A stretch of 64,000 nucleotides of DNA from a virus. Taxonomy: Duplodnaviria; Caudoviricetes. Positions 16,264 to 40,104 of the stretch are shown here, piece after piece (position 1 is the first letter of the stretch; each line of letters starts with the position of its first letter). Below the pieces are notes generated by a model. That model did not search any database and was not told the origin of the DNA. It saw only the letters and a program-made list of their open reading frames with translations. Location: positions 1 to 64,000 of the IMG/VR virus record IMGVR_UViG_3300029288_003518; one strand, 5' to 3'. The translations under genes were made by a program, and so were the position numbers.

Positions 16264-19200
16264 TTATTTTTCTAGTTCTGATATTTTAGATTCTAATACA
16301 CCTATCTTAGAACTAAGTTCCTTTACTGCATTAACTAATGCGCCAATAATACCCCTGTCAGATAAACCCAGATAACCATCCCTGTTTTTATCGACCGCTT
16401 CTGGAATAAGTCTCTGTATTTCTTGAGCTGAAAATCCCGCATAAGTATGGTCTATTCCTATATCAATACCAGATTCTTTATTCCACTTATATAATATAGG
16501 ATTGATTTGTAATACTTCTTTGAGACCATATTTTAAGTTACCTTGAATATCTTTTAATCTAGTATCTGAAGAAGTTGCTACAGTGCCATCAGCAGCAAAA
16601 CTAGTAGTTCCGGCTCCATAATAAGGAAGTTTAAGAACGCCTAAAGATGTTAATGCAAACCAATTTGTTGCATTATATGCTAATTCAAATACATTATTTC
16701 CTATAGTTGGACCTATACCAGCTCGCCATAACATAGCATTCGTAGAACTCTTCCAGTCTATCGTTCCACCATAATTATCATAGCTCAACATTTCTATCTG
16801 TGGAAAGGAAGCTTCCATCCGAGCACAAACTCCTGAAGTGTCTTTTACGTGTAACCTAACTGAAGGAGTACAATTAACTCCAATATATCCACTACTAAGA
16901 ATTGATAATCTTGCTGTTCCCGATCGAGTAGATGCATCAGCAGCAGTATATAAGTTTATAGACGTTGCTGCATTAGTCTCTCCAAATCCCCCACCTATAA
17001 CTAATTCATTATGACTAGCATCCCAGTTCATAGCCCCTACTAGGGTTATACCCTCTGGTTCTGAAGAACTTGAGTATTGAGGTATAACTATTTGACCATT
17101 TTTACTAGTTGAATCTGCTGTAGTAGTAGTAATAGTAATTTGAGGGATAGATCCCACAAAAATAGACGTAGCGCTTCCAGAGTAACCTGAGACTCCAGAT
17201 CCACTATATCCAGAAATGCCACTATATCCAGAGTATCCGGAGTAGCCAGAGGTTCCACTGTATCCTGAGATTCCAGAATATCCAGAATAACCAGATATAC
17301 CACTATACCCGCTGTACCCTGAAATACCACTATACCCAGAGTATCCACTATATCCCGATACACCTGAACCCGAGTAGCCAGAATAACCGGATATACCGCT
17401 ATATCCAGAGTAACCAGAGTATCCGGAATAACCCGAGTACCCGGAGTAGCCGCTATATCCTGAGTAATCTCCGGGTGACCAAGCAAAATCATATATTGTA
17501 GTTCCCTCAACCGCTATAGCTGCATCATAGTATGCAACAGCATCGGCAACATCCTGATAGATGGTCAACTCTACTTGGGTAGCATTAGCGTCTATTAGTC
17601 TGGTTGCCGATATCCTTTCATAAGTACCACTTCCACTGTGGCCTGGTCCGTATGTGTCTCCTACTCCATCATTTATCTTTATGTTACAGCTGGTTACATT
17701 TGTATTGATCCATACTGAGAATGTAACATTCTTACCCTTCCAATAATTTATACCCTTTTTGGTGTGGATCGTTTGCTGCGTTAGAGTATTGGCACCAACG
17801 CGAGTCCTCTTGCAACTATAAGTACCATATTTTACAGTTATTGAGTCTCTTTCAATTATAGAATTCACTCCACTGGATACCCATGAAGCTGGATCAGAAG
17901 TTGTCCCATTTGGCCATTTCTCAAAATCTCCATTATCTAATTCATTAGGAAGATATCGGAGCCCAGAGATACCACTATATCCTGAATAACCTGAGAATCC
18001 TGAATATCCAGATATGCCAGAGTATCCGGAATATCCTGAGGTGCCAGAGTAACCGGAGTAGCCAGAGATTCCCGAGTAACCTGAGTACCCAGATTTACCA
18101 GAGTATCCAGAGTAACCTGAAATTCCGGAATATCCAGAATACCCACTGATACCACTATACCCAGAGTATCCACTATATCCCGATACACCTGAACCCGAGT
18201 AGCCAGAATAACCGGATATACCGCTATATCCAGAGTAACCTGAGATACCACTATATCCTGAATAACCGGATATACCAGAACCTGAGTAACCTGATATACC
18301 TGATCCACTATATCCAGAGTATCCGCTAATTCCACTATATCCGCTATATCCCGATATTCCTGAATAACCGCTATAGCCAGAATACCCCGATATTCCAGAT
18401 CCACTGTATCCTGATACTCCCGATCCAGAATACCCAGAGTATCCAGATATACCAGAGTAACCGGAGTAGCCAGAGATTCCGCTATATCCCGAGTAACCAG
18501 AAATACCAGATCCTGAGTAGCCCGACACGCCAGATCCAGAGTATCCACTATAACCTGAAATGCCAGAATAACCGCTATAGCCAGATTTACCGGAGTAACC
18601 AGAATAACCAGAATAGCCAGAAATACCAGAACCAGAATAACCCGAAATACCAGAACCGCTATACCCGGAGTAACCAGAGATTCCGGAGTAACCACTATAT
18701 CCTGAAATACCACTGTATCCAGAGTAACCGGAGATGCCTGAGCCTGAATATCCTGAAACTCCAGAACCCGAGTAACCGGAATAGCCAGAGATACCTGAAT
18801 AACCGGAATATCCAGATATTCCGCTGTAACCTGAATATCCTGATGTACCTGATCCGGAATATCCCGATACACCTGATCCTGAATATCCAGAATATCCGCT
18901 AATGCCAGAGTAACCGCTGTAACCAGAGATTCCGCTATATCCTGAGTAACCAGAATATCCAGAAATACCAGAACCCGAGTATCCTGAAATTCCTGATCCG
19001 CTATATCCTGAGTATCCAGATATACCAGAATAACCAGAGTAACCACTAATTCCGCTGTATCCAGAATATCCAGAAATACCAGAGCCGGAATATCCTGATA
19101 CGCCTGACCCACTATAACCTGAGTATCCCGAAATACCAGAGTACCCCGAGTAACCTGAATAACCCGAGATTCCACTATAGCCAGAGTAACCTGAGAGGCC

Positions 19201-38740: not shown

Positions 38741-40104
38741 TACATTCCCTCCAGGTTATATTTTGCATCCGCAGGAGCAACATTATCAGGAACCTGTCCA
38801 TCAGGGAATAATACCTCATCTATTAATTTCTCCCACTGCGCACATGTTCCCTTCCAGTCCATCGTCTTAGCTATTTCTCTCCCAGCAAGACCACACTTGG
38901 TCCTGAGTTCCGGATCATCAATCATCCCCAGAAGGCATGTTACATATAAATCAATATCTATGATTGCCCTTCTTATGTTAGTCATTGGTTCAGACTCTAA
39001 AACAACCGGGGGTACTAATAACCCACCCCTACCCACCCACTCAGTATGAGCAGAATAGTCTGTTACAACCACTGGTATCCCGGCAGACATAGCTTCTAAA
39101 ATTGGCAGTCCAAAGCCCTCTCCCCTTGTGGGAAGGGTAAATATATCAAACGCATTATACACTCCATTGAGAGTGTACTCGGACACTCCGGAGCCTATTT
39201 TAAGCTTTGGATTTACAAGAACCTTGCCAACTAAATTGTAATCCTTTTGTAAGTCAAGCAGATCCCAACCGCAATCAACAATAGCTGAATGAAGATATAG
39301 CCTTACATCGTCTCGCGGTTCACCTTTCTTCACATCTGTGCAACCACAGTGACGGCATATATTTACTGGATATAGTTCTTTTCTTACGAGATTAAAAGGG
39401 TAAACTGTAACCTTATTACACTTTTTACACCGTACATACATACCATTGAGTATATAGAAGTATGCTTCAAATAACTTATCAAAGGCCTTCCTTGGCTGGT
39501 TTCTAGCCACAACCCCAAGTACCTTTGTTTTATCATCTGTTATCCCCAGCATGCTTTTCCTTGCCTCTAGACGTTCCTCTTTTGATACCGGTTTAAAAAC
39601 CTCGGAATCAACACCGTGATATATATACTTAAGGTTCGCTTTTGGAGCGCGCTGCTTAATTACTTCCATGCCATATTTCCCATAAGCAACTGCCACGTCC
39701 ATATCCTCAACAGTGGCTCCCCATTTAGATGGAGACGGATGCCCGTCGATGGGGAAATAAGCAACCCATTTAAATGTTTTCCTACTGGGAACAGTAGCCA
39801 CATGGTCTACCATCCACATATCACCGAGAGTCCAAACCATATCAGGTTTAAACTTTTCAATATACATAGGAAGAGATTTGTGAGCATACTTATCTTCCTG
39901 AGTAGTTCGACCCTGGTTATCCTTCTCTGTTAAGAGAATGGGGTATGTAACTTCTTCATTTGTTTCCTGATGAAACCAACCAATGCAACGTATATCGTAC
40001 TTTCCGGTTCTATTTAAGTAAGTCCATATTTCTCTTCCGACCCCAGCAAAGCCAGTATGGAGCTTAGGAGAGTCCGTCATTACAAGTATTCTCTTGCGTT
40101 CCAT
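38740..40104 (-). CDS. GT4 (GT-B) glycosyltransferase with Zn-ribbon insertion
   Basis: TGFAGV, HGVD, RNQPRK, CKKC...CRHC insert, PTRGEGFGLPILEAMSAG. Confidence 0.9.
   Translation of the reverse strand: MERKRILVMTDSPKLHTGFAGVGREIWTYLNRTGKYDIRCIGWFHQETNEEVTYPILLTEKDNQGRTTQEDKYAHKSLPMYIEKFKPDMVWTLGDMWMVDHVATVPSRKTFKWVAYFPIDGHPSPSKWGATVEDMDVAVAYGKYGMEVIKQRAPKANLKYIYHGVDSEVFKPVSKEERLEARKSMLGITDDKTKVLGVVARNQPRKAFDKLFEAYFYILNGMYVRCKKCNKVTVYPFNLVRKELYPVNICRHCGCTDVKKGEPRDDVRLYLHSAIVDCGWDLLDLQKDYNLVGKVLVNPKLKIGSGVSEYTLNGVYNAFDIFTLPTRGEGFGLPILEAMSAGIPVVVTDYSAHTEWVGRGGLLVPPVVLESEPMTNIRRAIIDIDLYVTCLLGMIDDPELRTKCGLAGREIAKTMDWKGTCAQWEKLIDEVLFPDGQVPDNVAPADAKYNLEGM

Follow-up and report, generated by a model that had tools for sequence, protein, structure and literature searches.

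Collagen-like Gly-X-Ser fibre genes of phages and an accompanying glycosyltransferase module with a probable role in virion glycosylation

What does a phage do with eleven glycosyltransferase (GT) genes that end directly before the gene of a 2,348-residue, serine-rich tail fibre? The question is raised by the first 64 kb of the 113,821-bp IMG/VR virus record IMGVR_UViG_3300029288_003518 (Caudoviricetes; CheckV completeness about 55%), the stretch of DNA that was analysed here and that we call the window. We favour, with moderate confidence, the reading that this locus is a phage-encoded virion glycosylation system, in which the serines of a repeat would be O-glycosylated in the cytoplasm and the phage's own collagen-like fibre would be the main acceptor. 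Three adjoining transferase genes accompany such fibres in many unrelated phages, which makes it probable that the phage sugar-coats its own fibre. These three genes, encoding the proteins that we named GT2a and GT2N and a small GT9-like protein, form a module that is virus-borne and lies beside Gly-aromatic/branched-Ser fibre genes in many phages with no other detectable gene in common with the present one. A functional tie between phage-encoded transferases and the Ser-rich fibre has strong comparative support: the module travels with Gly-X-Ser collagen-like genes across divergent phages, and no case of it with a Gly-X-Thr fibre was found.

A collagen-like fibre and the three adjoining transferase genes

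The fibre gene, its recognisable parts and the module are located as follows.

16264-23310, minus: collagen-like tail fibre, 2,348 amino acids (aa), with DUF2793 at the N-terminus, four Gly-X-Ser blocks with globular inserts between them, and Peptidase_S74 at the C-terminus
17956-20481, minus: longest Gly-X-Ser block, residues 956-1797 numbered from the GTG at 23346
22264-22770, 20719-21840 and 17170-17460, minus: further Gly-X-Ser blocks
16393-16569, minus: Peptidase_S74 (chaperone of endosialidase) domain of the fibre, residues 2260-2318 (Pfam 34.6 bits, cut-off 22)
23381-23857, minus, ATG at 23857: small protein of ~158 aa, a stand-alone GT9-like C-terminal (donor-binding) Rossmann half of a GT-B enzyme
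23854-24873, minus: GT2a, the central enzyme of the association with fibres, a GT-A (GT2) domain followed by a C-terminal Rossmann-like domain
24870-26909, minus: three-domain enzyme consisting of GT2N (residues 1-226), Methyltransf_24 and a GT17-like domain

The open reading frame (ORF) of the fibre (16264-23346, minus) opens with the GTG at 23346; we chose as start the ATG at 23310, which is preceded by an AGGAGA ribosome-binding site. The gap between the last stop codon of the transferase cluster and this ATG is 70 nt, as given, together with the length of the fibre, in an initial annotation of the stretch. The protein consists of 25% Ser, 25% Gly and 15% Tyr, with 1.4% Pro. The hundreds of Ser-Gly dipeptides described in the initial annotation are present (516 of 600 serines); the proposal that this dipeptide is the sequon did not hold, the repeat being instead a collagen-like Gly-X-Ser triplet with Ser at position 3 (GYS 284, GIS 93, and GVS also present). 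A total of 423 triplets are held in 44 uninterrupted runs with Ser third in nearly all of them, and after every 9-10 triplets a register break, in which a single residue separates two glycines (G-S-G), recurs very regularly throughout 17956-22770 (minus). Since the synonymous codons of the repeat region are thoroughly mixed, the repeat is maintained at the protein level.

Searches against Pfam matched the fibre to Collagen (E 8e-116), to DUF2793 near the N-terminus and to Peptidase_S74 at the C-terminus. Glycine occupies each third residue over long runs, as in members of PF01391, and the X and Y positions lack the richness in proline and hydroxyproline that is typical of animal and most bacterial collagens. 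The S74 domain sits at the extreme C-terminus and the gene is surrounded by tail and baseplate genes, as in phage tail fibres. On sequence grounds, the protein can be classed as a collagen-like tail fibre that carries its own intramolecular chaperone. Its periodicity, and the presence of S74 as a trimerising chaperone, suggest that it forms a trimeric triple helix.

In GT2a, the motifs DD (39-40) and DDD (96-98) are invariant, and the end of the gene shares the four letters ATGA with the beginning of the small gene, so that stop and start codon overlap. Elsewhere, GT2a is fused to the small protein in two loci, and the GT2N-methyltransferase-GT17 protein is fused to GT2a in one other. An AlphaFold model of one GT2a-small protein fusion (pLDDT 82) consists of a GT-A domain followed by two Rossmann-like domains. 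In structural superposition, the part contributed by the small protein matches the C-terminal domain, which binds the donor, of WaaC, WaaF and TibC, all of them GT9 enzymes (Z 13-14, root-mean-square deviation 2.3-4.3 Å, 127-153 residues), with UDP-GlcNAc 2-epimerases at most one Z unit from the GT9 scores. A two-domain model compared by Foldseek with the same three enzymes aligned over 264-371 columns with E about 1e-4 and low template-modelling scores, and when the C-terminal part was modelled by itself, confidence was low for the half derived from GT2a. The Rossmann-like domain of GT2a is a likely candidate for the other half of a split GT-B enzyme formed with the small protein. When the whole fusion was used, the structural matches were to generic GT-A enzymes alone (ppGalNAc-T2, K4CP and others), and a sequence search of the PDB returned nothing for GT2a and weak WaaC matches for the small protein. 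Membership of the TibC/Aah family (BAHT, TIGR04414) was considered and rejected: the window proteins gave no hit, a fused homologue scored 16 bits against a cut-off of 200, and no member was found in the phage's own genome or in 32 repeat-bearing records.

GT2N-type domains also occur in tandem, with four copies in a 1,265-aa protein (L251:3050-6847, plus; genome G015) and two copies joined to the methyltransferase-GT17 part in a 1,114-aa protein (L247:12717-16061, plus; genome G003).

Pairing of the module with the repeat type across phages

The association was approached from both the repeat and the enzyme. A degenerate DNA pattern of five G-Y-[S/T] triplets, whose third codon WSN takes Ser together with ACN (Thr), matched at least 119 viral stretches, and the hits were split by the third residue into 61 Ser-type and 54 Thr-type loci. 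A GT2 domain was present in 23 of 35 repeat-bearing records and in 5 of 48 records drawn by a random 14-mer (Fisher p = 2e-7), and the distance between the repeat and the closest GT2 was 1-5 kb in about 15 records. Only three genes of the window, those of the small protein, GT2a and GT2N, had homologues in the repeat loci, at 37-59% identity. Such module homologues were found in 24/61 Ser-type loci, in 0/54 Thr-type loci and in 0/119 control loci (p = 2e-8); the first of these counts is a lower bound, because many of the Ser-type loci without the module are just 2-4 kb long. A test for co-occurrence of repeat fibres and glycosyltransferase clusters had been proposed in the initial annotation.

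When an alignment of GT2a served as the query, at least 586 relatives were found in IMG/VR, and neighbourhoods were counted for the best 80 of these loci. A Gly-X-Ser ORF was present in 46 of the 80 (median gap 778 nt, with 33 within 2 kb) and a Thr-type ORF in none, and neither type occurred in the 119 control loci (p = 1e-23 in comparison with the GT2a loci). The small protein accompanied GT2a in 76/80 loci. Among 69 collagen-like ORFs neighbouring GT2a, triplet position 3 was Ser in 89%, and position 2 was mostly Tyr (35%), Ile (15%), Phe (13%), Thr (10%) or Val (5%), together 78%, with Pro reaching a few per cent at most. After clustering of the GT2a sequences, a Gly-X-Ser neighbour was found for 12/18 clusters at 50% identity and for 36/59 at 70%. 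Gene order varies: some loci, the present one among them, have the module upstream of the fibre gene, and other loci have it downstream. The rest of the genome has almost no match to the Gly-X-Ser loci, and a search without a positive control found no homologue of the phage's own baseplate protein in 32 repeat-bearing records, complete genomes included. Among 185,579 prokaryote species GT2a was detected on 13 contigs only, all of them in metagenome bins from scattered phyla; the family is therefore virus-borne.

Fibres of the Thr type have other partners. In five records they adjoin proteins with a GT2 domain and TPRs, some with a methyltransferase, and in two of these the transferase gene abuts the collagen gene directly. 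Gly-Tyr-Thr collagen-like genes are followed by a GT2+TPR protein at L248:7064-9394 (minus), L259:10973-12730 (plus) and L057:3545-4789 (minus), one of them with a methyltransferase. Different repeat chemistries thus go with different transferase families, as an enzyme-substrate relation predicts. As a tentative generalisation, which we regard as possible and hold less firmly than the reading of the locus itself, collagen-like fibres that lack proline might routinely be glycoproteins in phages and giant viruses, each repeat type having its own virus-borne initiating transferase (GT2a with the split GT9-like enzyme for Gly-aromatic/branched-Ser, GT2+TPR for Gly-Tyr-Thr). If this pairing is real, many of the 'LPS-type (lipopolysaccharide-type) auxiliary genes' in phage fibre regions would really be virion glycosylation pathways.

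In 12 Ser-type loci (e.g. L041:4867-5484, minus) a protein of ~206 aa with a C-terminal IPT/TIG domain, which has no homologue in the window, is encoded directly upstream of the Gly-X-Ser gene.

The wider locus, a possible pathway and competing explanations

Beyond the module, the cluster (23381-40104, minus) continues away from the fibre with the following genes.

26909-27856, minus: NDP-hexose 4,6-dehydratase-like short-chain dehydrogenase/reductase (SDR)
27860-28399, minus: small protein with a weak HNH/zinc-ribbon match
28401-29489, minus: GT4-like transferase of GT-B fold, 362 aa, found by structural match, Pfam being silent
29489-30340, minus: GT2b
30353-30922, minus: methyltransferase
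30919-31902, minus: GT2c
31899-32507, minus: methyltransferase, CmcI/rhamnosyl-O-methyltransferase-like
32500-33393, minus: GT2d
33394-34575, minus: DegT1, RfbH-like
34603-34998, minus: hexapeptide acetyltransferase, NeuD/VioB-like
34982-36079, minus: DegT2, 4-aminotransferase-like
36123-36869, minus: GT2e
36866-37582, minus: GT2f
37583-38740, minus: GT4a
38740-40104, minus: GT4b

Sugar-nucleotide enzymes and a small protein with a repeat stretch are encoded on the other side of the fibre gene.

4824-5252, plus: helical protein of 142 aa with a short stretch of the fibre's repeat
5577-6395, plus: additional SDR epimerase/dehydratase
9740-10603, plus: RmlA, above the NCBIfam cut-off
10596-11567, plus: RmlB, above the NCBIfam cut-off
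12827-13720, minus: RmlD-like SDR reductase

Altogether 18 cluster genes were examined, and 12 glycosyltransferase domains were found on 11 of them: seven GT2 genes (one fused to a methyltransferase and a GT17-like domain), two GT4 genes, the GT-B/GT4-like gene and the GT9-like half. The other domains are three of Methyltransf_24, two DegT enzymes, the acetyltransferase and the dehydratase-like SDR. Domain searches agreed in every item with the composition of the ~17-kb co-oriented run in the initial annotation, and rmlA, rmlB and two more SDR genes do lie nearby. The analogy to animal proteoglycans that was drawn there was a misframing and has no enzymatic basis: none of the 18 cluster proteins matches a xylosyltransferase-type initiating enzyme or linker transferase, and the families found are GT2, GT4, GT9 and GT17.

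The small HNH-like protein inside the cluster is possibly, judged from its sequence match, an inserted homing endonuclease; it has a homologue with 38% identity in a locus with a Thr-type fibre (L256). The 142-aa protein carries, ~20 residues from its C-terminus, the stretch GYSGISGYSGYSG, which is the repeat of the fibre, and could be either a second acceptor of minimal size or a piece captured from a fibre. Just upstream of rmlA, a 151-aa ORF (9288-9743, plus) gave a weak match to a NusG domain (E 6e-4, below the cut-off); long operons for glycans are where an antiterminator of the NusG/RfaH kind would be useful. The ORF at 1202-2149 (plus) encodes a recombinase of the RecA family (Pfam RecA, E 3e-31).

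The cluster and the fibre gene belong to a co-directional array on the minus strand that also comprises tail and baseplate genes (46-64 kb), with PHROG virion and tail-fibre matches at 46275-62384, and genes of a primase-helicase and a PD-(D/E)XK nuclease (40.4-43.7 kb). A scan for promoters and terminators between cluster and fibre gave no signal above chance. The phage has no close cultured relative, since the DNA of 40407-47483 had no match among GenBank phages and the protein matches of the primase-helicase were all below 30% identity. A search for related loci that started from one baseplate protein likewise returned no relative.

In the pathway that we propose, soluble enzymes would act in the cytoplasm of the infected cell on the Ser hydroxyls at triplet position 3, which would be exposed to solvent. 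One of GT2a, GT2N or the GT9-like enzyme would place the first sugar on Ser, and gene content and adjacency suggest that the remaining module enzymes, here probably together with eight further transferases, would extend the glycan. The donors would be dTDP-6-deoxy, amino and N-acetylated sugars. RmlA and RmlB would be the source of dTDP-4-keto-6-deoxyglucose, which the DegT pair, the acetyltransferase and the SDRs would convert into 4-amino, 4-acetamido and 3,6-dideoxy sugars, and the three methyltransferases would add O-methyl caps. The glycan may stabilise the proline-free triple helix, for which the glycosylated Thr of some invertebrate collagens offers an analogy, and it may shield the roughly 1,500-residue repeat region or give adhesion.

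Several observations weigh against this reading. A GT2 is lacking in 6/20 Ser-type records, all of which are fragments with an estimated completeness of at most 52%, and the source record is itself incomplete. In 34/80 GT2a loci the fetched flanks, which extended to at most 10 kb per side and were often shorter, held no collagen-like gene; here the fibre gene may lie elsewhere in the genome, or the module enzymes may have other acceptors. The distal 14 kb of the cluster (GT2b to GT4b, with the DegT and methyltransferase genes) have almost no homologues beside such fibres elsewhere, so their link to the fibre is one of adjacency alone. Of the proposal in the initial annotation that the cluster glycosylates the fibre, the part concerning the three proximal genes has now gained comparative support, and for the distal genes no comparative link to the fibre was found. 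A triple helix formed by a proline-free GYS repeat is an assumption, and the p-values take no account of the relatedness of contigs, despite which the distributions argue that the pairing of module and fibre is spread across lineages. Finally, soluble GT2 and GT4 enzymes are also normal in lipid-linked pathways, and an initiating transferase and a flippase could be borrowed from the host.

This last point leads to the explanation usually given for transferase clusters found near phage fibre genes (PMC7029224, PMC9602691), namely the remodelling of the host surface. Here the soluble transferases would extend a lipid-linked glycan of the host (O-antigen, capsule or surface layer) against superinfection, working on host lipid carriers, and their position beside the fibre gene would reflect a shared hypervariable region. 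GT2 and GT4 enzymes, RmlA and RmlB, DegT enzymes and acetyltransferases are typical O-antigen genes, and both the distal 14 kb without a conserved link to the fibre and the GT2a loci without a nearby collagen-like gene would suit this explanation. We nevertheless consider it unlikely. Hydrophobic segments are lacking from all cluster proteins, and the 114-kb record encodes no polytopic membrane protein at least 250 aa long. Profile searches for Bac_transf, Glycos_transf_4, Polysacc_synt and Wzy_C found none of them in the record, about 55% complete as it is, and detected the positive controls, in line with the initial annotation, which had seen no flippase, Wzy, Wzx or undecaprenyl initiating transferase. 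An initiating phosphoglycosyl transferase (Bac_transf, Glycos_transf_4) was also absent from five records with a related arrangement, again with positive controls, and four other phage genomes with fibre and glycosyltransferases, at least 97% complete, lack initiating transferases and Wzx. In addition, a position in a variable region leaves unexplained why the module tracks the residue of the repeat (Ser 24/61, Thr 0/54), and the GT2a family is nearly confined to viral contigs.

A second alternative keeps the virion as the target and moves the acceptor: the transferases might mainly modify short loop tags such as [Ala/Pro]-Ser-Gly in proteins of the baseplate and tail, or else the fibre's globular inserts, rather than the collagen-like serines. 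In the non-collagen ORFs of at least 200 aa in the phage's own record, [AP]SG occurs 53 times in comparison with 15.8 expected (3.4-fold), the reverse GS[AP] is depleted (7 in comparison with 15.8 expected, 0.44-fold) and [AP]TG is at expectation, and the GT2a loci without a collagen gene would also fit. Around GT2a in other phages, however, [AP]SG is enriched 1.22-fold compared with 1.26-fold in controls, and the tight, residue-specific pairing is with the repeats, which renders loop tags as main acceptors rather improbable. They are compatible with glycosylation of the repeat serines, as Ser-Gly follows a small or hydrophobic residue in both.

Modification of phage DNA bases in the manner of the T-even phages is highly improbable: phage DNA glucosyltransferases are GT-B enzymes and one Atlas feature row places the 362-aa GT-B/GT4-like protein in a DNA alpha-glucosyltransferase cluster, but 12 transferase domains with pathways for amino-, deoxy- and methyl-sugars exceed by far what known DNA modifications involve, the 64-kb window showed neither a hydroxymethylase gene nor another gene for base modification, and the pairing with Gly-X-Ser genes would be left unexplained.

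If virion glycosylation is indeed the function of the locus, phage adsorption organelles would bear glycans specified by the phage, which would matter for host range, for the escape of virions from antibodies and proteases, and for helix stabilisation without proline. With the at least 586 viral loci and with 1,197 clusters in a protein collection that bear generic names only, GT2a is a large, uncharacterised and virus-specific enzyme family with (Gly-Tyr-Ser)n as its predicted peptide acceptor.

Known systems of comparable design

The combination of collagen repeats and Peptidase_S74 in one fibre is known from the prophage collagens of E. coli O157 and from fibres of polinton-like viruses (PMC3368898, PMC12220804). 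The present phage shares this fibre architecture, but its repeats differ in being free of proline and saturated with Ser, and those reports draw no link to glycosyltransferases.

With respect to the enzymes, a close parallel is SgtA of Clostridioides difficile, whose gene lies immediately upstream of bclA3 and which in vitro transfers O-GlcNAc onto the Thr of the collagen repeat and also onto Ser peptides (PMC7157674). Both systems have collagen-like Gly-X-Y repeats with a hydroxy amino acid at position 3 and an adjoining GT2 gene, although the transferase gene nearest to the fibre is here the small GT9-like half, 70 nt away, with GT2a directly next. The GT2+TPR architecture of SgtA is not shared by GT2a, which has no TPRs and whose Rossmann domain may complete the separately encoded GT9-like half; it is found in the GT2+TPR partners of the Thr-type phage fibres. 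Furthermore, BclA and BclA3 are located on the surface of bacterial spores and have Gly-Pro-Thr-type repeats, whereas the present protein is a phage tail fibre with proline-free Gly-Tyr/Ile-Ser repeats. The glycan of BclA in Bacillus anthracis (rhamnose-anthrose) contains, besides rhamnose, a 4-amino-4,6-dideoxyhexose that is methylated and N-acylated. Sugars of this kind would be in keeping with the types of enzyme encoded here, namely RmlA/B, DegT, acyltransferase and O-methyltransferase (PMC9614988).

TibC and Aah offer a further likeness. Both are soluble, have the GT-B fold and a GT9 ancestry, and in the cytoplasm attach O-linked sugars to many Ser of a surface protein with repeats. The present enzyme, which is probably split over two genes and is joined to a GT2 domain, falls outside TIGR04414.

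Among viruses, mycobacteriophages and giant viruses encode transferases and sugar-nucleotide pathways for their own structural proteins, as is proposed here for the present phage. Mimivirus produces methylated N-acetyl-viosamine, and its collagen-like proteins are glycosylated by the viral enzyme L230 (PMC9614988), which works through hydroxylysine, whereas no hydroxylase is present here. For the mycobacteriophage Maravista, capsid glycosylation was inferred from two transferase genes, the proposed acceptor being the capsid protein and not a collagen-like fibre (PMC11256854), and a module of GT2a and a GT9 half is not described in either group. A full-text literature search, whose coverage excluded most subscription journals, returned no paper that connects dedicated transferases with the collagen-like fibres of phages. 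Thus, the O-glycosylation of a collagen-like surface protein is known in principle, and what appears to be new here is the phage setting together with the enzyme module composed of GT2a, the GT9-like half and GT2N.

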